DNA of 64,000 nt from Pseudomonadota bacterium (GCA_041178065.1 JBEGWB010000155.1:1497-65496), one strand, 5' to 3'. Numbered from the stretch's first letter, positions 31,112-61,223 are shown. Translations and numbers: made by a program. Notes: generated by a model from the letters alone, not told the origin.

Positions 31112-32767
31112 TCAGCTGTGCAGTATTCCGCCTTCGAGCACGGTCAGCTGCGGGCGTGTCTTGTCCGATTGATAAACGACGGAGCGGTTGCGTCCGTTCT
31201 GCTTCGCCTGGTACAGCGCTTTGTCGGCGTGCTGGATCAGTTCTTCGAGCGTTTCTTCGCGCGTGCGGCTGGCGACACCGATGCTGATCGTCAGTGGTCG
31301 TTTGCCGATCACGTCGACCTGCATCAACTCCACGCGCATACGAATGCGCTCTGACAGCGCCAGCGCATGGCGCGGGTCGGCGCCGGCGGCCAGGATCAGG
31401 AATTCTTCGCCGCCAACCCTGCCAACGGCGTCGGACTGGCGCAGGATCGTCTGCAACACGAAGGCAAACTCGCACAGCACCGTATCGCCCGCCGCGTGGC
31501 CAAAGGTGTCGTTGATCGATTTAAAATGGTCGATGTCGAGGACCATGCAGGAGAAGGGTTCGCCGGCGCGCTGCGTACGATGCCATTCGCGCGTGCCGCA
31601 TTCCATGATTGCGCGGCGGTTTGGTAACTGCGTCAGTTCATCGGTCACGGCAAGCGCATGCAGCTTGCGCGCCATGGCGCGGCTGCGCTTGTACATGAAT
31701 AGCACGAGCATCAGCACGACGCCGCCGAGCAGCAGTACGAGATACTGCAGGTTCTCCACCATGCGCCGGTGCGCGAGTTCCTCCTGCTGATTGGCGCTGA
31801 GCGTTTGCAGGCGCGCGTTGTCGTCGGCATAGCGGCGTGTGTCGATTTCGAACTGCAAGCGTTGTGTCGTATCGTTACCCTGCTGATTGAGCTGCGTCTG
31901 CAGCAGGTCGGTGTAGGCACGCTGCGCGATCAGGGCCTTTTCCCACTGTCCGAGTTTTTCCAGCGCCAGGCTCAGACCACGGTAGGTACGCAACAAGGGC
32001 GAGTTCAGGCCGAGATCCGCCAGCACCGGCAGCGCCACATAATAATATTCGGCGGCCTGCCGTGGCTTTCCCTGGTCGAGCGCGAGATCGCCGAGATTGC
32101 GCTGCACCATGGCTGCTTGCGCCGTGTCGCCGAGTTCGCGGAATCCCGCCAGCGCGGCTTCGAGGTAGGCGCGTGCGCCAGCGAGGTCGACTTGCGCCTG
32201 CGCATTTACGCCGAGCGCTTTCAGTGTGTACGCCACGCCCGACCTGTCGTCGAGCTGTTTGCTGAGTTCGAGTGCGCGTTCGAAATGGCTGGTCGCTTCG
32301 GCGTACCGGGCGCCGCTGGCGGCGACGTGCCCAAGGTTGAATAGCGATACCGACAAGCCTGCGCGGTCTTCGTTGTCGGTGTCGAGCTCGACCAAGTCCG
32401 TGAAATAGCGCTCGGCAAGGTCGAGCTGGCCGGTGTTGTAGTGCAGGTTCGCAAGCGAATTCAGCACTTTGCGGGCCAGCGCCGATTCGCGCGGATCGCC
32501 GGCGAGCAGCCACACTTCGTTCAGCAGCGCGATCGCTTCGTCGTAGCGATTTTGCGCCATGTAGCCTTCAGCGCGCGCAAGGAGTTCAGTCAACTCGGCC
32601 TGCACGTCAGCGGCGGTATCGACCGAGGCAGTGCTCTGGCCCGGATCAGCGGCACACACCGTCAACGACGGCGCCAGCAAGGCCAGCGTCAACGGCAGTG
32701 CGCGCCACAGCGTAAAGCGGGACAGCGAAATGACAGGGGCGCTGACTCTGGGCACTCGCTTGCGCAT
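31112..32767 (-). CDS. Periplasmic-TPR / TM / GGDEF diguanylate cyclase
   Basis: Signal peptide, repeated TPR-like helices and the TM segment LVLLLGGVVLMLVLFMY. GGEEF active site with an RQSD I-site five residues upstream. Confidence 0.85.
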   Translation of the reverse strand: MRKRVPRVSAPVISLSRFTLWRALPLTLALLAPSLTVCAADPGQSTASVDTAADVQAELTELLARAEGYMAQNRYDEAIALLNEVWLLAGDPRESALARKVLNSLANLHYNTGQLDLAERYFTDLVELDTDNEDRAGLSVSLFNLGHVAASGARYAEATSHFERALELSKQLDDRSGVAYTLKALGVNAQAQVDLAGARAYLEAALAGFRELGDTAQAAMVQRNLGDLALDQGKPRQAAEYYYVALPVLADLGLNSPLLRTYRGLSLALEKLGQWEKALIAQRAYTDLLQTQLNQQGNDTTQRLQFEIDTRRYADDNARLQTLSANQQEELAHRRMVENLQYLVLLLGGVVLMLVLFMYKRSRAMARKLHALAVTDELTQLPNRRAIMECGTREWHRTQRAGEPFSCMVLDIDHFKSINDTFGHAAGDTVLCEFAFVLQTILRQSDAVGRVGGEEFLILAAGADPRHALALSERIRMRVELMQVDVIGKRPLTISIGVASRTREETLEELIQHADKALYQAKQNGRNRSVVYQSDKTRPQLTVLEGGILHS

Positions 32768-32788: not shown

Positions 32789-33604
32789 TTAGAAGCTGGC
32801 CGCTGCCTCCATGTCGATGTTGTCGAAACCATCGGTCATGCCGAGTTTGACGAAGGCCGGGATGGCGCTCAGTTCGCCGGCCTGGTCAAGCTTGCCCTTG
32901 TTCTTCGCGCTTTGCAGGTTCGCCACGATGATCAGGTCGACGTAGTCGGGACGCGCGCCGGAATCGTATTTCAGGTTCTCGTGTTCAGCGGCAACTTTCA
33001 CGAGCGTTTCGGGGAAGTTCCAGTGACGCAGGATTGCCTTGCCGAGCTCGGTGTGCGCACGTTCCACGAGACGGTCGAGTTTGACTTCGTCGCGCAGCAG
33101 CACGGGATATTCTTCGGCCAGGGTCAGCACAGGCAGCACGCCAATGTCGTGCACGAGGCCCGCGAGCATCGCCTGGTCCGCCTGCAGGTGGGGATGCTGG
33201 TGACTGATCGCCATTGCGATCGACGACACTTCCGACGCATGTTTCCAGCACGCGCGCAGCTTGCGGTCGGTGATTTCAGTAGTCGCCTGGAACAACTGCT
33301 CCATGACGAGCGCGGTAACGATGTTGCGGATCATCGCGCCACCCATGCGCATGACGGCCATCTCGACCGACTCGATGCGCGAGCGCGCGCCAAGCACGGG
33401 GCTGTTGGCAATCTGGATCAGGCGCGCCGAAAGCGCGGGATCCTTGATGACCGCTCGCGCCACGTCCCCGAGCGAACGCTCTGGATCACTAACAATGTCG
33501 CGGATTTTCAGTGCCATTTCGGGCAGCGTCGGCAGGACAAGTTCGTCCTTGCGCAGCGCTGTGAATAGCCGGTTCAGGAATTCATTCTCTAATGCTTCGC
33601 TCAT
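32789..33604 (-). CDS. HDOD domain protein
   Basis: LPTLPEMALKIRD...GLVHDIGVL pattern of HDOD. Its stop lies 21 nt before the GGDEF gene start. Confidence 0.8.
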   Translation of the reverse strand: MSEALENEFLNRLFTALRKDELVLPTLPEMALKIRDIVSDPERSLGDVARAVIKDPALSARLIQIANSPVLGARSRIESVEMAVMRMGGAMIRNIVTALVMEQLFQATTEITDRKLRACWKHASEVSSIAMAISHQHPHLQADQAMLAGLVHDIGVLPVLTLAEEYPVLLRDEVKLDRLVERAHTELGKAILRHWNFPETLVKVAAEHENLKYDSGARPDYVDLIIVANLQSAKNKGKLDQAGELSAIPAFVKLGMTDGFDNIDMEAAASF

Positions 33605-39358: not shown

Positions 39359-40219
39359 TCAGGGCTGCGTACGCCCCGCCTCATCCGCGCGCAATATTTC
39401 CCAGGCCTGTATCGCTTCCTTGCGCGTCAGACCCCAACGGTAGCCGCCGAGCGCGCCGCTCTGCTGGATCACGCGATGACACGGGATCAGGAACGCAACC
39501 GGGTTTGCGCCGATCGCCGTGCCAGCCGCGCGCACGGCGCGCGGCGCGCCAATACTGTCGGCGACCTGCTTGTAACTGACAGCCGCCCCCGCCGGAATAC
39601 GCAACAGTGCGCGCCACACGGCGACCTGGAAGTTCGTGCCGGCGACATGCAGGGATAGCGGCCCCTTCAGCTCCGCCGGTTTTGCCGATAGCAGTTCCGC
39701 GATGGCGCGCGTCGTTGCAATGCTTTCAATGAACGTCGCCAGCGGCCAGCTTTTACGCAGCGCGCCCAGCTGCGTGCCGATGTCTTCCTCACTGTCGATG
39801 AATGCCGCCTTGCATACGCCACGGCCCGTCTGCGCAACGAACAGGTGGCCGAAGGGCGTGTCATGCAGGCCATGCTCGATGACGAGATCGCGACCCTTGC
39901 CCCGATACTCGCCCGGCGTGACTGCTTCGATCTGCACGAAATGATCATGCAGGCGCGAGCTGCTGCTCAGGCCAAGCCTGTCGGACACTTCCAGCAGCGA
40001 GCCGGATCCATCGAGCAGCTTCTTGCCAAGCTCCAGCGTCAGTACCTGCAGGAAGCGTTTGGGTGTCGTCCCAGCCCAGCGGCTGAATAAACGCTGGAAA
40101 TGAAAGGGGCTCAGATGCACCTGCGCCGCGAGCTCGTCGAGCGAGGGTTGCGCCGTGAGGTTCTCGCGCAAATACGCTATCGCTTTTGCTATGCGTTGAT
40201 AATCCGAGTGCTCATTCAT
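39359..40219 (-). CDS. AraC-type HTH fused to methylated-DNA-protein-cysteine methyltransferase (Ada/Ogt-like)
   Basis: N-terminal LDELAAQVHLSPFHFQRLFSRWAGTTPKRFLQ (AraC HTH). C-terminal MGMT active site IPCHRVI. ATG 40219 (MNEHSDY) chosen. Confidence 0.85.
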   Translation of the reverse strand: MNEHSDYQRIAKAIAYLRENLTAQPSLDELAAQVHLSPFHFQRLFSRWAGTTPKRFLQVLTLELGKKLLDGSGSLLEVSDRLGLSSSSRLHDHFVQIEAVTPGEYRGKGRDLVIEHGLHDTPFGHLFVAQTGRGVCKAAFIDSEEDIGTQLGALRKSWPLATFIESIATTRAIAELLSAKPAELKGPLSLHVAGTNFQVAVWRALLRIPAGAAVSYKQVADSIGAPRAVRAAGTAIGANPVAFLIPCHRVIQQSGALGGYRWGLTRKEAIQAWEILRADEAGRTQP

Positions 40220-40361
40220 GGTGAATGGTGAATGGTGCCTGCCTGCAGTGTAGCCGACGAGTGTCGACGTGAATATCAGCGACCCGGCGCCGCGCAGCCG
40301 CATGGCCGATGCCGGAACTGGCGCCGGTGATGATCGCAACCTTGTTTGCCAGCAACTGCAT
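40220..40361 (-). pseudogene. Decayed remnant of a short-chain dehydrogenase/reductase gene
   Basis: One minus frame reads MQLLANKVAIITGASSGIGHAAA (SDR TGxxxGIG cofactor motif). The adjacent frame continues RLRGAGSLIFTSTLVGYTAG (the segment around the catalytic Ser). This indicates a frameshift plus an internal deletion of about 100 codons, truncated by the next gene. Confidence 0.6.
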
Positions 40362-40447
40362 GTCGACACGCCGCAATAAATGGATAGTGCGCAAGTGTGT
40401 CGCGGCGGCGAAGGCGAGTCGAACCGGATCTTGCTGAGTTTGCGGCC

Positions 40448-41497
40448 CTAAAAGCTGTAACGCAGCGTCATGTCGGCTGCATCGCGGGTATACGAGTCGA
40501 TGCGTTCGGAGCTGCTATAGGCGAGGAACAAACGCCAGCGCGCGCTGAGGTCGAGCTGCCAGTAGGCGGCCCACGCGCGCGTGTCGACAGTGATGAGGTT
40601 TTCAGTGGCGGGCCCATCGCTTAAGTAGAGGCCGACGCGTGCGCGCCCATTGACCTGCCAGTGCGCACCGAGCATCCAGGCGACGGTACTTTCGTCATCC
40701 TGGTCCCGCACCATGCCAAGCGCAGGGGTAAGCCAGGCGTCGACGCCTGGCAGGTAATATTCGAGGCCCATCATCAGGCGATCCGTGCGGCCGTTCGCAA
40801 AAGAGCTGTGCTGGTATGAACCATAGGCGGCGACTGTGCCGTAGGTATCGCGGCTCTCTGCTAGCGTCTTGCTGGTTTCGATACGCGCAAAATATTCCGG
40901 CATGAAGTCGGCTTCCGGCGTCACACCGAGCGCAACTTGCAGCGGCAACCTGCTGCCTGCGCCCAGTGTCATGCCGCCTTCGATCATCGTGTCATGAAGA
41001 CTGAAGCGATGATTGTGTTCGCCGCGGATGTAGTTCTGGCCGCCGTCTTTGCGAATGACGCGATACTCGACGTTGCGATCGTTCCATTCGGCGAATTCGG
41101 CCTGATCAATTGTATTGCGGCTGAAGCCGGTAGTGACAAACTGATCAGCATCAGGTGAACCGATTAGCGGTACCGCCCGCAGCTCGAGGATCCGCACGCG
41201 CGCGAGCTGCAAATCAGCATCGTTCGGCGCGCTCAGCAGCGCGGTGTCGATCAACGTCAGCGCATCGGTATACAAACCCTGGTAAGCGAGCACCATGCCG
41301 AGCAGGTATGAAACTTCCGCTTTATTCGGCGGCAACTCATAGGCGCGCCGAAGTATGTCTTCGGCGACATGCAGGTTGCCGGCGTTACGCTCCACCACAG
41401 CCTGGGCAATCAGCGTGTCGTAATCCTGCGCGAATGCCGGGTTGGTCGCCAGCGTTACGACCAGCGGAAGGGCGCGGAACATAAATTGCAGTTTCAT
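40448..41497 (-). CDS. Outer-membrane protein: N-terminal TPR region plus YaiO-like beta-barrel
   Basis: Signal peptide MKLQFMFRALPLVVTLATNPAFA-Q. TPR-like helices (AEVSYLLGMVLAYQGLYTDALTLIDTAL). Alternating beta pattern ending MTLRYSF. The longer track ORF (to 41944) overlaps the upstream GT2 gene. Confidence 0.7.
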   Translation of the reverse strand: MKLQFMFRALPLVVTLATNPAFAQDYDTLIAQAVVERNAGNLHVAEDILRRAYELPPNKAEVSYLLGMVLAYQGLYTDALTLIDTALLSAPNDADLQLARVRILELRAVPLIGSPDADQFVTTGFSRNTIDQAEFAEWNDRNVEYRVIRKDGGQNYIRGEHNHRFSLHDTMIEGGMTLGAGSRLPLQVALGVTPEADFMPEYFARIETSKTLAESRDTYGTVAAYGSYQHSSFANGRTDRLMMGLEYYLPGVDAWLTPALGMVRDQDDESTVAWMLGAHWQVNGRARVGLYLSDGPATENLITVDTRAWAAYWQLDLSARWRLFLAYSSSERIDSYTRDAADMTLRYSF

Positions 41498-41531
41498 GGC
41501 GTGGATACCTGGGATTTGTTGTTTCGATGTT

Positions 41532-42944
41532 TCATTTGGTGGTCTGGAATCCTGTTCGCTCCATTTTGCCCCAGTCCTTTTTGCCGCGCAGGAACGTGTA
41601 GACGCCGTGCATGCGCCACCAGGCGTTGAGCTGTCGGTAGCCAAAGCTTTCGAGCAGCGACAGCAGGAACAGTTCGAGCAGATCGCGCACCTTCGGATAG
41701 CGCCGGAACGAGATCTCCTCGAGGCTGACGGCGAAGAATGACAATGCCATGCCGAGAACGAAGGACACCAGGAAGAAGGTCGTCGTGAACACCAGGCTGC
41801 CCGGCTGCCACGCGAACAGCAGGTAGAAAAAATACACATAGGCAAGAAACTCGATGATCGGGCCGAGCCCCTCGAGCAGCATGAAGTAGGGGAAAGCCAG
41901 CAAGCCGATGCGGCCGTAGCGCGGATTGAACAGCATGCCGGCATGCCGCGTCGTCGCTTCGAGCAGGCCGCGCTGCCAGCGCGACCGCTGTCGCTGCAGT
42001 ACTTTCAATGACTCCGGGCATTCGGTCCATGCCACGGGATCAGGCACGTAGGAAATGCGGTACGGACGCTTCTGGTCCCGGCAATAACGGTGCAGGCGGA
42101 CCACGAGCTCGATATCTTCGCCAACGGTCTCAACCCCATTGCGCTTTGTGGAGTAGCCACCGGCGGCGACCACCGTGCTGCGGTGGAACAGGCCGAAGGC
42201 GCCGGAAATGATGAGCGTCGCGTTAATGGCTTCCCAGCCCATGCGCCCTGCGAGAAAAGCGCGGAAATATTCCAGCACCTGGAACTTTGCCAGGAGCTTT
42301 TTCGGCATGTTGATCGCGGTCACCCTGCCTGCATGCACATGACTGCCGTTGACGATACGGATGAGGCCGCCGACGGCGACTGTGTCGCTGTCTTCGATGT
42401 AGGGTCGTACGATGCGCGTCAGCGCGGGCTTTTCCAGCAAGCTGTCAGCATCGACGGCACAAAACAACGGACTCTCGCTGAAGTTGATGCCCGCGTTCAG
42501 CGAGTCGGCCTTGCCGCCGTTTTCCTTGTCGATGAGCCACAGGTTGGGGATGCGCTTGCTTTGGTAGAGGCCGCGTATGCTGGCGCATGGAATGCTTGCC
42601 GTGGGCATGCGGTAGGCTTCCTGCATGTCAAAGGCCTCGCGCATGCATTCGAAGGTGTTGTCCTTCGAGTCATCGTTGATAACGAGTACTTCGTACTCCG
42701 GGTACTCCAGCGCGAGCAGCGACCGCGTGGCCTCGACGCACGTCGCTTCCTCATTGTACGCCGGCGCGAGAACCGTGATCGGCGGCAGGAATCCCGATGC
42801 AAGCAGAGCTGCGTCGGGATAGGCATCCATCTTGTTCGCATACTGGCGCAGCCGGTTGAATGCCAGCAGGCTTGTGATGAAGTACACGGCGCTCAGCACC
42901 ACGAAGTAGCCGAGCACGAGATAGTTGAAGGCAGTCAGTATCAT
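41532..42944 (-). CDS. Processive family-2 glycosyltransferase (PgaC/NfrB/cellulose-synthase-like polysaccharide synthase)
   Basis: N-terminal TM, VLAPAYNEE, VINDDSKDN, CAVDADS and the Q-x-x-R-W motif QRSRWQRG, followed by C-terminal TM helices. ATG 42944 has GAGGA upstream. Confidence 0.85.
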   Translation of the reverse strand: MILTAFNYLVLGYFVVLSAVYFITSLLAFNRLRQYANKMDAYPDAALLASGFLPPITVLAPAYNEEATCVEATRSLLALEYPEYEVLVINDDSKDNTFECMREAFDMQEAYRMPTASIPCASIRGLYQSKRIPNLWLIDKENGGKADSLNAGINFSESPLFCAVDADSLLEKPALTRIVRPYIEDSDTVAVGGLIRIVNGSHVHAGRVTAINMPKKLLAKFQVLEYFRAFLAGRMGWEAINATLIISGAFGLFHRSTVVAAGGYSTKRNGVETVGEDIELVVRLHRYCRDQKRPYRISYVPDPVAWTECPESLKVLQRQRSRWQRGLLEATTRHAGMLFNPRYGRIGLLAFPYFMLLEGLGPIIEFLAYVYFFYLLFAWQPGSLVFTTTFFLVSFVLGMALSFFAVSLEEISFRRYPKVRDLLELFLLSLLESFGYRQLNAWWRMHGVYTFLRGKKDWGKMERTGFQTTK

Positions 42945-42957
42945 CGGCGCGTCATCC

Positions 42958-44034
42958 TCATTCGGCGAGTATCTGGCGGACGAGCGCGGCGCGCGGATGG
43001 CCGTCGCGCACCAGTTGCTCCAGCGCCGCATGGCCACCGAGATCCTTCATGCCATAGACGGCCTGGCGCGCAACCCACGGACTTGGATCATCCAGAGCGC
43101 GCAGGAATATCGCGTAGTCCTCGCTGGTGCACAGGGCGCGCAAGGTGCGCAGTGCGTTGACGCGCAGGAATTCCAGCGGGGCGTTGCAGATAGCACGCAC
43201 GGCCACGGAGTGATACTGCTGCCCGACTTCACGCAGCAGGCGCAATGTCGCGACGATGAGCTCGGGGTCCTGGTCAGTTCCGAGCTGGTCCGCGGCACTG
43301 TCGGCGACAGGATAGTCCGCATAGTTGATCAGTGCCTGCGCGGCGATGATGCGCGTGCGCACCGGTCGCGCCGGATCCAGGTAGATGTTCTCGAGCAGCG
43401 GAATCGCATCGGGCCCCATGCCCGATAGCAGGCTGGCCAGTTTGTGCAGGTTCCACTTGTCAAAACGGTGGAAGTGGTCCATGACGCGCGGGATGTAGCT
43501 GACGTGCTTCTGCGCCAGCAAGGCAGTCGCAGCGGCCATGGCGACAGCGGGCGATTTATCCTGCAGCGCTGCGAAGGCTGCTTGCTCATACTCGGGCATG
43601 CCGAACACACTGATGACGTTCATCGCCCAGATGCGTACGCCCGCATCCCTGGCCTGCAGGCGGGGCGCGACATGCGGCAGGTAATGCAGCGCGAGGCTTT
43701 TGAGCGTGACGAGATCGGAGCCACGCAGCCGCCAGCCGTATGGCATGAGATAGCGCACGAAGTCGAGTTCGTCCTCGTGCCGAACCAGCTTGAGGAACTC
43801 GGCAGGGGACATGTCGCCACTGAGAACGTTCAGGATGTCCTTGTCCCACAGTTCATGCAGTCGTTTCCAGAGAAGCTCGCGTTGGTTATGGCCACGACGC
43901 AAGAGGAGCGCAAACAAGGCAAAGCACAGTGCAAGTAAAAACAGTACGACGACGCTCGTGCCGAGGAAGAACAGCGTCTGGTGCTCGAACGAGGTCTTAT
44001 CAAACCCAAGGTACTGTTCGTACAGGTATTTCAC
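42958..44034 (-). CDS. Membrane-anchored HEAT/PBS-lyase-repeat protein
   Basis: N-terminal TM TLFFLGTSVVVLFLLALCFALFALLL. Repeated about 30-aa helical units (..D.....R..A...L). Its stop lies 13 nt before the GT2 start. Confidence 0.65.
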   Translation of the reverse strand: MKYLYEQYLGFDKTSFEHQTLFFLGTSVVVLFLLALCFALFALLLRRGHNQRELLWKRLHELWDKDILNVLSGDMSPAEFLKLVRHEDELDFVRYLMPYGWRLRGSDLVTLKSLALHYLPHVAPRLQARDAGVRIWAMNVISVFGMPEYEQAAFAALQDKSPAVAMAAATALLAQKHVSYIPRVMDHFHRFDKWNLHKLASLLSGMGPDAIPLLENIYLDPARPVRTRIIAAQALINYADYPVADSAADQLGTDQDPELIVATLRLLREVGQQYHSVAVRAICNAPLEFLRVNALRTLRALCTSEDYAIFLRALDDPSPWVARQAVYGMKDLGGHAALEQLVRDGHPRAALVRQILAE

Positions 44035-44047
44035 CGGAAGGAAGGCA

Positions 44048-45127
44048 TCAGGGTTTGACGAGACTCTTCACGCGCGCAAGTAATTCCACGGGTGAGAATG
44101 GCTTGACGATGTAGTCGCTCGCGCCCATGTCATAACCGCGCACGACGTCTTTCTCGCTGCCCATCGCCGTCAGCATGATCACTGGCACCGCTTTGCCTGC
44201 CGGCAGCGCGCGGGTACGCGCCAGCACTTCGAATCCGTCGTGGACCGGCATCTTGACGTCGAGGATGATCAGGCACCAGCCCTCGTATTCCACGGCGTGC
44301 ATTGCATCGGCGCCGGAGTTGACATGCACAACCTCAAAGCCGTCACGCGCAAGGCGATGCTTGATGATGCCGGCCAGCAGTTCATCGTCTTCGGCGAGCA
44401 GCACCTTGCGGCCGGGGGCTCTGAGACCGGACGCGGGCCCGGTGTTCTCGGCCTGTGCCGGTGGCATGACAGGTTGAGCCGGCGCACGCAGTTCGGCGTC
44501 GATCATCGACGTGATGGCTTCGGGGTCGAAGGGCTTGCTGAAAAAGCGCTGCGCGCCGAGTGCGAGACATTCGTCCTTGATGGACTGCCGATCGACTCCC
44601 GACAGAACGAAGACAGGAATGCCTGGACCGAGAGTGGCGCGAATCTCACGCAGCAGTACGCGGCCGTCGCCGTCGGATAGCACGAGGTCAAGCACCACTA
44701 GTCCATAGTGCTGTTGCTTCAGAGACACGCTTGCTTCAGCGGAACTGCTCGCGATCTTGATGCGGTAGTTGTCTGATTTCCTCGTCAGCAACACCTTCAT
44801 CAGATTGGAGATGTCGGCGTCGTCTTCGACAATCAGGATATGCAGGTACAAATCGTTTGCCTCACGCCCGGCCTCGAGCAATACACGCAGGAGGTTCGTG
44901 AGCTGGTGCAGCATGCTGTCAGTATCAGCTTGCTCGACATTCTTCGCAGCCGCGCTGATCTGTGGATACCCGAAGGTTGTGCCAGAGCCGTGAAGGGAAT
45001 GGGCCAGCAGGCGCAAGCTGTCAGTTGCGCCAGTCTTTCCATCGCGCATCTCGCCTAGCAACGCGCGTATTGTCCTGATTTTCTCCGGCAGCGACTGGCG
45101 GTACTGTTCCTTGAGTTCCTCGAGCAT
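44048..45127 (-). CDS. Hpt-REC-REC phosphorelay protein without an output domain
   Basis: N-terminal LAHSLHGSGTTFGYPQI (Hpt His). Two receiver domains (ILIVEDDADI...VVLDLVLSDGDG and VLLAEDDELL...IILDVKMPVHDG...K). Confidence 0.8.
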   Translation of the reverse strand: MLEELKEQYRQSLPEKIRTIRALLGEMRDGKTGATDSLRLLAHSLHGSGTTFGYPQISAAAKNVEQADTDSMLHQLTNLLRVLLEAGREANDLYLHILIVEDDADISNLMKVLLTRKSDNYRIKIASSSAEASVSLKQQHYGLVVLDLVLSDGDGRVLLREIRATLGPGIPVFVLSGVDRQSIKDECLALGAQRFFSKPFDPEAITSMIDAELRAPAQPVMPPAQAENTGPASGLRAPGRKVLLAEDDELLAGIIKHRLARDGFEVVHVNSGADAMHAVEYEGWCLIILDVKMPVHDGFEVLARTRALPAGKAVPVIMLTAMGSEKDVVRGYDMGASDYIVKPFSPVELLARVKSLVKP

Positions 45128-45156: not shown

Positions 45157-46944
45157 TTATAGCCCAGGGCCCCCGGCCGGCACGGAGGCCAGTGCGAAGA
45201 AAAATGTGGTGCCGGTCTCGTTATTGGAAATGAAATCGAGCTGGCTCCCATGCTCCTCGAGAATCTTCTGGCTAATGTACAGGCCGAGGCCGGTGCCACC
45301 TTTGGTGCGCGTGGTCGATGAGTCGCGCTGGAAAAATTTACCGAACAGTTTGGCACGGTCCGCGTCCGGAATGACTTCGCCGCGGTTGTTCACGGACACA
45401 CGCACGCGCTCGCCGTCCTGTGCCAGCGCCAGGGTCACAGTGCCGCCCGTGATGGAAAACTTGATAGCATTCGACAGGATGTTCGTGACGACCTGGAACA
45501 GGCGATCCGGGTCGATCCTGACCATGTGGACCTCCGCGAGGCCTGCACCCGCGAGATTGACGCCATACTGTGCCGCATAACTCTGGTTCGCGGCCAGTGC
45601 GTCTTCCATCAGGCGCGCCAGATCGCACATCCGAAAACGATATTCCATTTTTCCGGATTCGAATTTTTCGACGTCGAGAATGTCGTTGATCAAAAGTTGC
45701 AGGCGATTGGCGTTCACCAGTGCAAGATCGAGCATCTCGCGACTTTTTTCCGGTTCGTCGGCGAGGATGCCGCTGGCAAGCAGCGCGAGGCTGCCCTTGA
45801 TCGAGGTCACCGGCGTGCGCAGTTCATGGCTGACGATGGAGACGAATTCTTCCTTCAGCTTTTCGTTTTCGAGCCGACGCGTGACGTCCTGTACGACCGA
45901 CATGACGCCGAAAACCGCGCCGCCCGTATCCGAAAGCAAGGTGTTGAACCATTCGCACTGGATGACCTCGCCCTTGCGCGTGCGGTGTTCGAGGATGCGC
46001 TGGTGGCCGCCGCTGTTACTTTTCAGATCGCGCCAGATTTCGGGCAGACGTGCGGCGTTTTTGCCGGAGAACAGGAGGTCGGCCAGGATGTGCCCGCGTG
46101 CCTGTTCCTTGGTATAGCCAAAAATATGTTCGGCGGCGGGATTCCATTCCTGTATCTGCATTTCCTCGTCCCACTCGATGACGGCTAGCGGGGTTTGCGT
46201 CACGTACAACGCGAGCCGTTGCTGGAAGTTGCGCAGGTCGAGCTCGCGGTATTGCGCGTCGATCGTCAGTTCGATGCCGCGCGCGATGTTCTTGCCGAGG
46301 CGGAATGCGCTGATGATCAGCATGACCAGCAGCGCGGCCATCAACCAGAACGCGAAATTGCCAGGCCCGGAGTGCGTCAGCAATAGCGTGCCGAGTAGCG
46401 GTGCCAGGATCAGGATCAGGAACAGCACGGCGAGCTCGGGGCGGGGCGACAAGGAGCTCGCGGCGAATGCCGCGAGACATACCATCATCAGCGCGAGCGT
46501 CAGCTCGAACGTGACGTCGTCGTAGACGAACAACAGGAAGCCGGCACTGCCGACCGCCGCGCCGAGCAGGATCGTGCCGATGCGGAACTGCGTGAACCAG
46601 GGTTCGATGTCGCGCGCCGGCGGGCTCGCGCGGAGAAATCGCCGGTAATGGATCCAGCGGCCCAGCGTGATCGTCAGCAGCATACCGACCCAGAGGTACA
46701 GCCGCACCGGCGACACCGCACCCTGGTAAACGAACAGCGCGACGGCGGAGCCGAGGACATTCGCCATGAGGCTGTTGGGAATGCCGTTAAAGAGAAGGGT
46801 GACCTGCTCGTGGAGCAGCGCAGCTTTCTTGTCTGACGCTATGTACACCCGATTTCCTGTGGTACTGGGAGGTGATCCTGCGCGCTTCGTCGGCGCGACA
46901 GGGGGGGCGGCCTGGCCGTGAAACAGTACCTCGCATTCTTGCAC
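45157..46944 (-). CDS. Membrane sensor histidine kinase (multi-TM, PAS, HisKA, HATPase)
   Basis: About 5-6 TM helices, PAS (IEWDEEMQIQEWNPAAEHIFGY), H-box SHELRTP, N-box NILSNAIKF and G-box GGTGLGL. The start is uncertain; GTG 46848 with AGGAAA upstream is an alternative. Confidence 0.85.
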   Translation of the reverse strand: MQECEVLFHGQAAPPVAPTKRAGSPPSTTGNRVYIASDKKAALLHEQVTLLFNGIPNSLMANVLGSAVALFVYQGAVSPVRLYLWVGMLLTITLGRWIHYRRFLRASPPARDIEPWFTQFRIGTILLGAAVGSAGFLLFVYDDVTFELTLALMMVCLAAFAASSLSPRPELAVLFLILILAPLLGTLLLTHSGPGNFAFWLMAALLVMLIISAFRLGKNIARGIELTIDAQYRELDLRNFQQRLALYVTQTPLAVIEWDEEMQIQEWNPAAEHIFGYTKEQARGHILADLLFSGKNAARLPEIWRDLKSNSGGHQRILEHRTRKGEVIQCEWFNTLLSDTGGAVFGVMSVVQDVTRRLENEKLKEEFVSIVSHELRTPVTSIKGSLALLASGILADEPEKSREMLDLALVNANRLQLLINDILDVEKFESGKMEYRFRMCDLARLMEDALAANQSYAAQYGVNLAGAGLAEVHMVRIDPDRLFQVVTNILSNAIKFSITGGTVTLALAQDGERVRVSVNNRGEVIPDADRAKLFGKFFQRDSSTTRTKGGTGLGLYISQKILEEHGSQLDFISNNETGTTFFFALASVPAGGPGL

Positions 46945-47100: not shown

Positions 47101-47502
47101 ATGACAACGTTGCAACGTGTACTGCATGTCGAAGACGATCCTTCCATTCGCATGGTAACGAGTGTGGCGCTGGAAAAAGTTGGCAAGTTGCAGGTGTTGA
47201 GCTGCGAGAGCGGGCAGATGGCGCTGGAAAAAGCCCATGCCTATGACCCTCAGGTGCTCCTGCTCGACGTCATGATGCCGGAGATGGACGGGCCGACGAC
47301 GCTCGATGGCTTGCGCAAGATGCTGGATATGGATGGCAAGCTGGTGCTGTTCATGACAGCGAAGGTGCAGCAGAAGGAACTCGACTTCTACCTCAGCATT
47401 GGCGCCTTTGGCGTAATCATCAAGCCCTTCGACCCGATGACGCTGGCGGCGCAGATCCAGCAGCACTGGGCGCAGTTCCAGGCAACCCGCGCGACGGTCT
47501 AG
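47101..47502 (+). CDS. Single-domain CheY-like response regulator
   Basis: VLHVEDDPSIR...LLLDVMMPEMDG...MTAK. 133 aa. Divergent from the kinase operon. Confidence 0.85.
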   Translation: MTTLQRVLHVEDDPSIRMVTSVALEKVGKLQVLSCESGQMALEKAHAYDPQVLLLDVMMPEMDGPTTLDGLRKMLDMDGKLVLFMTAKVQQKELDFYLSIGAFGVIIKPFDPMTLAAQIQQHWAQFQATRATV

Positions 47503-48575
47503 GTCTCAGCCCAGCTGCGGTCGGTCAGCTTGTCGAGAATTTGCGGCGAGCCCTGCTGCGTGTGCTGTCCCCACTGGTATTTCACGTGCTGCCAGAAGCG
47601 CGTGTTCCATGAACCGTGCACTTCCTTGCGGTCCTGCCAGTAGAGAATGAATTCCTTGACGCGCGCGAGGGCGAAGTCGATATCGACACGTGCGAGCGCG
47701 AGTACTTCGAGACAGGCAGGGCTCGGCGTGAAGTCCGGCGGGATCGGCCGCGGCGTTGTGTCGTTTTCGAGCGCATTGGTGTAACGCTCCCACTGGCGGC
47801 GCACGTGCGGAATGAACTTCGAACTCCAGCCGCTCGTTACCGTGCCGCGCTCGCGCCAGTACAGGATGAATTCGGGAATGACATCGTCGATGAAGGTGCG
47901 GCTAATGCCGGCATGTTCGAGGATATCGACCGCTTCCTGGTCTGGCATCCAGCCCTGATGCATTGCAGTTTCGGTTTCGCGCGCGCCCTGCAGGCTACGC
48001 TGCTTTTCCCATTCGGCGACGACCCATTTGAAAAAGCCGAAGCTCGACTGATCCGTGCGCTTGCGTTCGCGGCATCTGAGTACGAACAGCGGCAACTGCT
48101 GATCGACGAAGTCGCGTGGAACACTGCGTTGTTCGCATTGGCGGTACACGTCCGGGTCGGGCTGCCAGCTCATCGGCATCAGCATGGTGGTGCCGGCATT
48201 GTTCTGGAATGGCGTCGCGATCGGTTTCTGCACTGGCGGTACCGCCGCCGCGGTTGGCGATTGTGGATCCGGCTGATTGATGGCGTACAGATGCGCCTGC
48301 GTGCCGTTACCCGGAGCCGCTTCGACAAGCAACAAGCCGAGGTCCTCCAGGCTGCGCTGCACGCGGCGAATGTCGGTTGCCTGCCAGAAGGGCAAGGCCT
48401 TCGCGAGGCGGTCGGCACTCAGTTCGCTCCAGCGCCGCTGCTGGCGATACTGCGGCGCGCAGGTCGCGAGCAATTCGCTGATGACATGCAGCATGACCGC
48501 TTCGTCCAGTCCGATCGTTGCGGCGAGCGTGGGCGAAATCAGCAAGGGGCGTTCGGGGATGAGTGAGGTGGGCAT
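47499..48575 (-). CDS. Protein with three tandem DnaT-like (W-rich) repeats behind an N-terminal helical domain
   Basis: Repeats FVDQQLPLFVLRCRERKRTDQSSFGFFKWVVAEWEKQ, FIDDVIPEFILYWRERGTVTSGWSSKFIPHVRRQWERY and ALARVKEFILYWQDRKEVHGSWNTRFWQHVKYQWGQ. ATG 48575 chosen. Confidence 0.6.
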   Translation of the reverse strand: MPTSLIPERPLLISPTLAATIGLDEAVMLHVISELLATCAPQYRQQRRWSELSADRLAKALPFWQATDIRRVQRSLEDLGLLLVEAAPGNGTQAHLYAINQPDPQSPTAAAVPPVQKPIATPFQNNAGTTMLMPMSWQPDPDVYRQCEQRSVPRDFVDQQLPLFVLRCRERKRTDQSSFGFFKWVVAEWEKQRSLQGARETETAMHQGWMPDQEAVDILEHAGISRTFIDDVIPEFILYWRERGTVTSGWSSKFIPHVRRQWERYTNALENDTTPRPIPPDFTPSPACLEVLALARVDIDFALARVKEFILYWQDRKEVHGSWNTRFWQHVKYQWGQHTQQGSPQILDKLTDRSWAET

Positions 48576-48734
48576 GCGGGCATTGGTGTGTGGCGGTAAA
48601 ACGGAGGGCGATGCTAGCACAGTTGCCGATGAGTGGAGTGCTGGTGATGCGCGGGGGGCTGCAGACTGTGGTGACAAGCGCAGCACTTAGGCTGCACCCA
48701 CCTGATTCAGCGAAAAACGACGCGGCGCAGGCGT

Positions 48735-61136: not shown

Positions 61137-61223
61137 GCCCAGGTGGTGAAATTGGCAGACACGCTAGCTTCAGGTGCTAGTGACCGCAAGGTCGTGAAGG
61201 TTCAAGTCCTTTCCTGGGCACCA
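61137..61223 (+). tRNA. tRNA-Leu (anticodon CAG), class II with long variable arm, CCA encoded
   Basis: GCCCAGG acceptor stem pairs with CCTGGGC. Anticodon loop CTTCAGGTG. Variable arm TGACCGCAAGGTCGT. T-arm GAAGGTTCAAGTCCTTT. Closely resembles E. coli tRNA-Leu(CAG). Confidence 0.92.

Follow-up and report, generated by a model that had tools for sequence, protein, structure and literature searches.

A 64,000-nucleotide stretch of DNA from a Pseudomonadota bacterium (GCA_041178065.1, JBEGWB010000155.1:1497-65496), hereafter the window, carries on its minus strand genes for a HEAT-repeat protein, a glycosyltransferase of family GT2 and a TPR-containing porin of the YaiO family, preceded by the genes of a phosphorelay. 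We judge the chances to be somewhat better than even that these five genes encode a synthase-dependent exopolysaccharide system under direct phosphorelay control, with the HEAT protein as an obligate co-subunit that couples the synthase to the relay. The evidence comes from the motifs and the predicted fold of the GT2, from the topology of the HEAT protein, from the domains of the porin and the relay proteins, and from the conservation of the gene order in distant organisms.

The HEAT-repeat protein (42958..44034, 358 residues, GTG start), the GT2 (41532..42944, 470 residues) and the porin (40448..41497, 349 residues) are encoded in this order on the minus strand. The HEAT and GT2 genes are 13 nucleotides (nt) apart (42945-42957), and the GT2 and porin genes are 34 nt apart (41498-41531), so that the coordinates and gaps given in the original prediction were reproduced. 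A longer GT2 open reading frame (ORF) reaching 43037 overlaps the HEAT gene and was rejected. The cluster had been described as a minimal apparatus for polymer synthesis and export. This was drawn too narrowly, since the multi-step phosphorelay directly upstream had been overlooked. An Hpt-REC1-REC2 gene without an output domain (44048..45127, minus strand; Pfam Hpt and two Response_reg domains) ends 13 nt before the HEAT start, and 29 nt separate it from the end of a sensor histidine kinase gene (45157..46944, minus strand; Pfam PAS, HisKA and HATPase_c). The description of the system as uncharacterised stands, in that our literature search, which had most subscription journals outside its reach, found no paper describing the module. 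As also predicted, neither the three proteins nor their gene neighbours up to about 10 kb away contain a deacetylase, PilZ or MshEN domain. Sugar-precursor, acyltransferase and further polysaccharide genes were not found within the flanks of about 10 kb either. According to Pfam and NCBIfam, none of the five proteins contains a c-di-GMP receptor domain (PilZ, PgaD interface, PelD or MshEN), a cryptic site being possible.

The GT2 contains the motifs NDDSKDN (residues 90-96), VDADS (164-168), GEDIEL (275-280) and QRQRSRW (317-323), among them the three motifs noted before. The residues D91, D165, D167, E276, D277, Q319, R320, R322 and W323 are invariant in 57 GT2 homologues of 58-84% identity, and GEDIEL likely supplies the catalytic base. 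Pfam assigns Glyco_tranf_2_3 (E 5e-20) and Chitin_synth_2 (27.8 bits against a cutoff of 27). The best NCBIfam match is PgaC_IcaA (TIGR03937, E 4e-36), at 124.9 bits against an equivalog cutoff of 422; the NodC model also matches (E 6e-13). A sequence search of solved structures gave nothing informative for the HEAT protein, the GT2 or the porin, and returned no GT2 relative of solved structure. Judged by sequence, the GT2 lies outside every solved or named family.

The AlphaFold2 (AF2) model of the GT2 has a mean confidence (pLDDT) of 87.5 and a pTM of 0.87. It consists of one N-terminal transmembrane helix, a GT-A domain, the QRSRW interface helix and, towards the C-terminus, three long helices; the tail that closes the protein, WGxMxRxGF, is cytoplasmic and conserved. 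The top Foldseek matches of the model are the hyaluronan synthases of Xenopus and a Chlorella virus (E about 4e-17, TM-score 0.58-0.64). BcsA and the fungal or oomycete chitin synthases follow, all aligned at full length over about 480 columns including the membrane part. According to the motifs and the predicted fold, the GT2 would belong to the fold class of the processive synthase-translocases, in agreement with its earlier assignment to the processive type. The first long C-terminal helix (residues 341-378) has two invariant glutamates, E358 and E365, within the motif LExLGPxIE; they may line the translocation path.

The GT2 family is large and well conserved. When 8000 candidate homologues were scored, 7969 had E<=1e-20. 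The top 120 are 59-84% identical to the window protein and belong to Gammaproteobacteria, Gemmatimonadota, Omnitrophota, Fidelibacterota and Acidobacteria. A relative is present in at least 589 genomes in a scan of one genome per GTDB species, and the identity between phyla is about 60%. One homologue of 720 residues (P0137) unites a GT2 and a YaiO domain. It was not accepted as a true fusion, because the junction (WGAMERKGFAKSAAVLAAICAAHGAAAQT) resembles the signal peptide of a separate YaiO gene; probably two adjacent genes were merged by a lost stop codon.

The HEAT protein matches Pfam HEAT_2 (E 1.6e-14) and has one hydrophobic helix near its N-terminus, at about residues 21-46, followed by RRGHNQRE. 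The membrane anchor proposed in the original prediction is thus borne out. An N-terminal transmembrane helix is present in 75 of 75 full-length members of the family. The mean number of Lys and Arg residues is 0.9 in the 15 positions before this helix and 4.2 in the 15 positions after it. By the positive-inside rule, the excess after the helix indicates that the HEAT solenoid is cytoplasmic. The sequence features point to a single-pass membrane protein with a cytoplasmic alpha-solenoid. One family member (P0214) has a bacterial SH3_3 domain ahead of the transmembrane helix, which fits an N-out topology. An [RK]G motif after the helix was considered as a marker of the receiver and was dropped, as receiver-bearing members from Bacteroidota lack the basic residue.

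A profile search for the HEAT protein against 1.84 billion cluster representatives gave 623 clusters (50% identity) at E<=1e-30. Among the 150 clusters listed, nearly all proteins have about 350-365 residues and match from end to end. The HEAT family diverges much faster than the GT2 family, with 25-30% identity where the GT2 keeps 50-60%. The actinobacterial partner still aligns with the profile (hhalign E 4e-11), and the haloarchaeal partner matches weakly (E 0.003) and was included on its architecture, position and RefSeq annotation. The PgaC/IcaA synthase requires a small membrane partner, PgaD or IcaD. No PgaD or IcaD is present here, and the partner of the GT2 is the 358-residue protein composed of a transmembrane helix and a HEAT solenoid. 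The earlier suggestion that the HEAT protein takes the place of PgaD-type partners fits the strict HEAT-GT2 pairing described below. In our proposal, the synthase depends on the HEAT protein as an obligate co-subunit, which also serves as its regulatory adaptor.

The porin has a signal peptide (MKLQFMFRALPLVVTLATNPAFA, then QD), TPR matches and the C-terminus LRYSF. Two YaiO models score above their curated cutoffs, TIGR04390 with 48.2 bits against 32 and PF19413 with 26.8 against 23.9. These scores, the signal peptide and the C-terminal aromatic residue place the protein in the YaiO family, and the assignment by hidden Markov models (HMMs) came out as anticipated for all three proteins (HEAT_2, the GT2 models and the two YaiO models). 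The AF2 model (pLDDT 91.8) shows a signal helix, five TPR-like helices (about residues 26-108) and a 14-strand barrel (118-348), in keeping with the earlier reading of a secreted protein with TPR-like helices and a barrel ending in RYSF. In Foldseek, BcsC is the top match of the whole porin (E 7.5e-12), and PelBC is also among the matches. The barrel by itself is closest to the 14-stranded OmpG (TMt 0.62-0.68, root-mean-square deviation about 4.8 Å). Near relatives are TPR and YaiO proteins of 350-450 residues. From the modelled architecture we propose that the porin is the outer-membrane export conduit.

All parts of a two-component phosphorelay are encoded upstream, namely a HisKA/HATPase kinase, an Hpt domain and receivers with the key residues, as assigned by Pfam; phosphotransfer between them is predicted. 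Ahead of its PAS, HisKA and HATPase_c domains, the kinase has an N-terminal part of about 230 residues with several hydrophobic segments; its actual start codon may be downstream of 46944. The kinase gene keeps the same place in a relative (locus L005). The Hpt domain of the Hpt-REC-REC protein is found at E 8.7e-10. REC2 (residues about 240-357) is an OmpR/PhoB-like receiver, and the NCBIfam PhoB model covers residues 240-357. Receivers neighbouring HEAT-GT2 pairs elsewhere score 80-125 bits against REC2 and 25-40 bits against REC1. The receiver of E. coli CusR, taken as a control, reaches 68 bits against REC2. From these scores, the neighbouring receivers are plausible orthologues of REC2. 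An alignment of 72 receivers shows that the acidic pocket is conserved, as are the phospho-acceptor Asp, the Thr and the Lys. A stand-alone receiver gene is located divergently at 47101..47502 on the plus strand (Pfam Response_reg, E 7.6e-21; the ORF opens at 46918 and the start codon is uncertain). It resembles REC2 weakly, and a REC protein of 132 residues stands at the corresponding position in the relative of L005. It is possibly a further component of the phosphorelay or a phosphate sink, its membership being uncertain.

The conservation of the gene order was surveyed at 87 loci. The genome scan contributed 79 of these and distant HEAT homologues another four contigs, all without duplicates; the others are three annotated plasmids and the window itself. 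Stop-to-stop ORFs were annotated with HMMs that we built for HEAT, the GT2, the barrel and signalling domains, and the counts are approximate lower bounds. The loci cover at least 17 bacterial phyla and one haloarchaeal plasmid. Of the 78 loci with room for it, 71 have a HEAT ORF immediately upstream of the GT2 in the same orientation. Most of the seven exceptions are technical: some GT2 genes are cut at contig ends, and on two annotated plasmids an adjacent RefSeq 'HEAT repeat domain-containing protein' was overlooked by our HMM. Where genes had been called (loci L001, L002, L003, L005, L087, L088, L089, L071 and L047), HEAT and GT2 are 1 nt apart or overlap by 1-4 nt. Of 75 loci, 64 have a receiver ORF on the same strand, no more than 3.3 kb upstream, that scores at least 50 bits against the REC2 of the window; with a threshold of 80 bits, 56 do. 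In many lineages, for example Mesorhizobium and Salinirubellus, this receiver is a stand-alone protein of 123-160 residues without an output domain. Hpt domains and kinases or hybrid kinases often adjoin the module.

The YaiO gene usually lies between the receiver and the HEAT gene in Alpha-, Beta- and Gammaproteobacteria, Verrucomicrobia, Bacteroidota and Ignavibacteria. It also accompanies the module in Sericytochromatia, in the clade of the window, and in Marinimicrobia and Fidelibacterota, where it follows the GT2. No YaiO gene was found in the surveyed loci of Actinobacteria, Firmicutes and the haloarchaeon. Large TPR proteins occur in Gemmatimonadota and Deinococcus, and no YaiO domain was detected in them. 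Our barrel-only HMM was too narrow, and the divergent YaiO proteins that it missed were confirmed with NCBIfam. These results define a hierarchy: the HEAT-GT2 pair is the invariant core, the receiver with its phosphorelay accompanies it as a rule, and YaiO is an addition in cells that possess an outer membrane. Thus the expectation that the genes are conserved together was upheld, and the idea of the triad as a conserved unit was not, because YaiO is restricted to double-membrane lineages and varies in position.

Annotated examples from cultured organisms illustrate the order. On Mesorhizobium ciceri pMESCI01 it is histidine kinase, REC, REC, TPR-YaiO, HEAT, GT2 and Hpt, and in Deinococcus radiophilus it is TPR, HEAT and GT2. 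The plasmid of the haloarchaeon Salinirubellus sp. SYNS196 (L089) carries REC, HEAT and GT2 with 4-nt overlaps, and its GT2 is 42% identical to that of the window. The likeness of the GT2 sequences across bacteria and haloarchaea suggests transfer between the domains. REC-HEAT-GT2 was also seen in further haloarchaeal megaplasmid matches (H5 and H7). In two loci of Blackallbacteria type, L001 (14840-16663) and L002 (14267-16087), the HEAT-GT2 pair occurs without YaiO, and an Hpt-REC-GGDEF-REC protein adjoins the module. The latter belongs to a convergent cluster of Hpt-REC, REC, REC-PAS-histidine kinase and Hpt-REC-GGDEF-REC.

We infer the coupling of the HEAT-GT2 pair to the phosphorelay, and the following mechanism is proposed. 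The kinase would sense a signal and pass phosphate from REC1 to Hpt and then to REC2. Phosphorylated REC2 would dock on the cytoplasmic HEAT solenoid. The transmembrane helix of the HEAT protein would pack on the few transmembrane helices of the GT2 and complete or stabilise the membrane part, as PgaD and IcaD do. In this way the HEAT protein would switch polymerisation and translocation on or off. The switch made of HEAT and REC2 would play the role that c-di-GMP plays with PgaD, PilZ, PelD or MshEN in known systems. The polymer would cross the periplasm along the TPR domain and exit through the YaiO barrel. Since the locus has no precursor or modifying genes, the product is probably a simple homopolymer with beta linkages that draws on a housekeeping nucleotide sugar. 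Our first guess for the substrate is UDP-GlcNAc, since the GT2 comes closest to PgaC/IcaA, the hyaluronan synthases and the chitin synthase model of Pfam; UDP-Glc comes second.

The cellulose, poly-N-acetylglucosamine (PNAG), alginate, Pel and Nfr systems have a post-translational c-di-GMP switch. In a wider reading, REC-HEAT-GT2 is an ancient module of bacteria and archaea, in which a phosphorylated receiver on the HEAT solenoid gates the glycan synthase directly and independently of c-di-GMP. It would then be a system of its own alongside these five, with a 14-stranded exporter of YaiO type in double-membrane bacteria. We hold this wider reading tentatively, as having somewhat less than an even chance. 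Synthase-dependent pathways are typically c-di-GMP controlled (PMC12802240). A direct action of a receiver on a polysaccharide enzyme is known from Myxococcus xanthus, in which EpsW, a response regulator with a single domain, directly activates EpsZ (PMC12802240).

Several observations weigh against direct relay control or against a long exported polymer. HEAT-GT2 pairs without signalling neighbours occur in Solirubrobacterales and Elusimicrobia; the same lone pairs indicate that the pair is the core. According to the GGDEF neighbour in the Blackallbacteria, c-di-GMP may play a part somewhere. The neighbouring receivers score above the generic family member CusR, yet the REC2 type is itself a generic OmpR/PhoB type. 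Among the longer HEAT-family proteins, which have extra HEAT repeats or SH3_3, no REC-HEAT or HEAT-GT2 fusion was found. Promoter and terminator scans of the window gave nothing above the shuffled expectation, so the operon boundaries are drawn from the spacing alone. The QxxRW enzymes include oligosaccharide makers (NodC) and lipid glycosyltransferases. Finally, the GT2 model has only about three true transmembrane helices, fewer than any solved synthase channel. Judging from the model, a complete translocation channel would therefore probably need the transmembrane helix of the HEAT protein or oligomerisation of the GT2.

Three other explanations were compared with direct relay control of a polymer synthase. 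That the genes are neighbours by chance, or through an annotation artefact, has next to no probability: the same order and spacing recur in the 71 of 78 loci, in at least 17 bacterial phyla and on a haloarchaeal plasmid, and the HEAT-GT2 order in dozens of unrelated lineages excludes a chance arrangement. In another explanation, the HEAT protein is a mere structural co-subunit or scaffold, as PelE, PgaD and IcaD are, and the receivers are relay intermediates or phosphate sinks on the way to a distant transcription factor or diguanylate cyclase; on this view, the system would be controlled transcriptionally or through c-di-GMP. The Hpt domain and two receivers of the window protein are typical of relay intermediates, a GGDEF protein adjoins the module in L001 and L002, and a TPR-GGDEF gene is located 8 kb away in the window. 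The generic OmpR-like type of the receiver and the HEAT-GT2 pairs without a receiver nearby also agree with it. We nevertheless consider this explanation unlikely. The receiver on the HEAT side is usually a stand-alone protein of 120-160 residues without an output domain, placed immediately upstream and often overlapping by 1-4 nt, and no DNA-binding regulator is conserved in the surveyed neighbourhoods. The receiver is associated with the module in lineages as far apart as Proteobacteria, Firmicutes and a haloarchaeon, a pattern that a relay ending elsewhere can hardly account for.

The remaining explanation concerns the product. The GT2 might make a membrane glycolipid, a short NodC-like oligosaccharide, or a periplasmic or cell-wall-attached glycan, and the YaiO barrel would have another role, such as uptake or anchoring. 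This seems quite improbable, since the best full-length structural matches, which include the membrane part, are polymer synthase-translocases, and PgaC/IcaA is the best NCBIfam match. The QxxRW motif and a similar topology are shared with NodC and the GT21-type lipid glycosyltransferases, PF13506 is assigned to many GT2 homologues, and the small number of transmembrane helices in the GT2 model would suit such an enzyme. The module is also present in single-membrane bacteria and archaea without any exporter. In many double-membrane lineages, a TPR and barrel protein with the fold of BcsC and PelBC is tied to the module in differing gene orders, which argues for export. The 14-strand barrel is smaller than the 16-18-strand barrels of known exopolysaccharide porins; pores of the size of OmpG are wide enough for a single glycan chain.

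If direct control of the synthase through the HEAT protein is true, it links the sensing of the environment to the making of matrix in a new manner, and the YaiO barrel family gains a function. The polymer would also be a candidate matrix component for numerous little-studied environmental phyla (Gemmatimonadota, Marinimicrobia, Acidobacteriota and Rhodothermota) and for haloarchaea. The synthase family is widespread and conserved, and it is tied to a HEAT partner and a receiver instead of the known c-di-GMP modules. Cultured carriers exist, so direct testing is possible; among them are Mesorhizobium ciceri WSM1271 (pMESCI01, MESCI_RS32000-32015), Aurantiacibacter luteus KA37, Emticicia oligotrophica DSM 17448, Paenibacillus cellulosilyticus, Deinococcus radiophilus and Haloarcula or Salinirubellus.

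The genes around the module in the window are housekeeping genes (QueG, SPFH/NfeD, an Ada-like regulator, DnaT, RadA, Alr and DnaB). The Ada-like gene lies directly downstream of the porin gene, at 39359-40369 on the minus strand; its product joins an AraC-type HTH to a methylguanine-DNA methyltransferase domain, and the gene also occurs on the contig of L005. A DnaT-type protein of 395 residues is encoded at 47499-48686 on the minus strand (PF17948 DnaT DNA-binding domain, three matched stretches, E 3e-54), and the same gene flanks the module in L005. About 8 kb from the module, a TPR-GGDEF diguanylate cyclase (31112-32767) and an HDOD protein (32789-33604) are encoded on the minus strand; a link to c-di-GMP through these genes is possible. 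The sole RNA gene detected in the window is a tRNA-Leu (CAG) at 61137-61223 on the plus strand (Rfam). No riboswitch was found in the window by Rfam, and models of anti-phage defence gave no meaningful match. The closest named relatives of the window, among the matches listed, are metagenome-assembled genomes of Pseudohongiella and Pseudomonadales.

Compared with known systems, the window module shares several features with PgaABCD and IcaADBC. Its inner-membrane GT2 is of the same superfamily (28% identity to E. coli PgaC over 300 residues), and PgaA is likewise a TPR and beta-barrel exporter in double-membrane bacteria. The GT2 score of 124.9 bits is, however, far under the PgaC cutoff of 422, and neither PgaD, the PgaB deacetylase nor the PgaA porin was detected at the window locus. 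The window porin scores 16.9 bits with the PgaA model (TIGR03939) against a cutoff of 366.7, in the TPR region only, and pairwise BLAST between the two is not significant. The window module also differs in having no c-di-GMP element and in being linked to a phosphorelay. A GT-A domain, an interface helix with QxxRW and the membrane part are common to the GT2 model and to the hyaluronan synthases, BcsA and the chitin synthases (E 4e-17 to 1e-10, TM-score about 0.5-0.64). The identity is 12-18%, and the window GT2 has fewer transmembrane helices, no PilZ and a HEAT partner.

In the case of the exporter, BcsC and PelB/PelC share the periplasmic TPR helices fused to a C-terminal beta-barrel. The window porin is much shorter (349 residues, about 2.5 TPRs), has 14 strands and belongs to the YaiO family, and the sequence likeness is in the TPRs only. 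The original prediction had pointed to the E. coli yaiO-yaiP genes and to NfrAB. In the yaiO-yaiX-yaiP-yaiS locus, a barrel of the YaiO family lies near a GT2 gene, and both barrels match the same family models. YaiP is 24% identical to the window GT2 over about 230 residues of the GT domain only, and E. coli YaiO has no pairwise match with the window porin. The E. coli locus contains an acyltransferase and a deacetylase, and a HEAT protein and a receiver are absent from it. This locus is only an analogue. NfrA-NfrB-YbcH also combines an inner-membrane GT2 and an outer-membrane TPR protein. NfrB has no significant similarity to the window GT2 (BLASTP E 0.037), the window GT2 has no MshEN, and the likeness to NfrA is confined to the TPRs, so the likeness to NfrAB did not extend beyond TPR similarity.

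Membrane-associated alpha-solenoid partners of a glycan synthase are found in PelE of the Pel system and in yeast Chs4/Skt5, which acts with Chs3; these have TPR or Sel1 repeats. They belong to other repeat families, and neither is known to read a receiver domain. The activation of EpsZ by phosphorylated EpsW in Myxococcus xanthus is a precedent for the proposed control step, but it belongs to a Wzx/Wzy pathway, its target is a phosphoglycosyl transferase, and it has no HEAT adaptor. On sequence grounds, the window system appears to work like Pga, Bcs and Pel, yet it is not an orthologue of Pga, Nfr or E. coli yaiOP. We take it to be a synthase-dependent system in which the proposed obligate partner and the exporter family are new and the control input is likely new as well.

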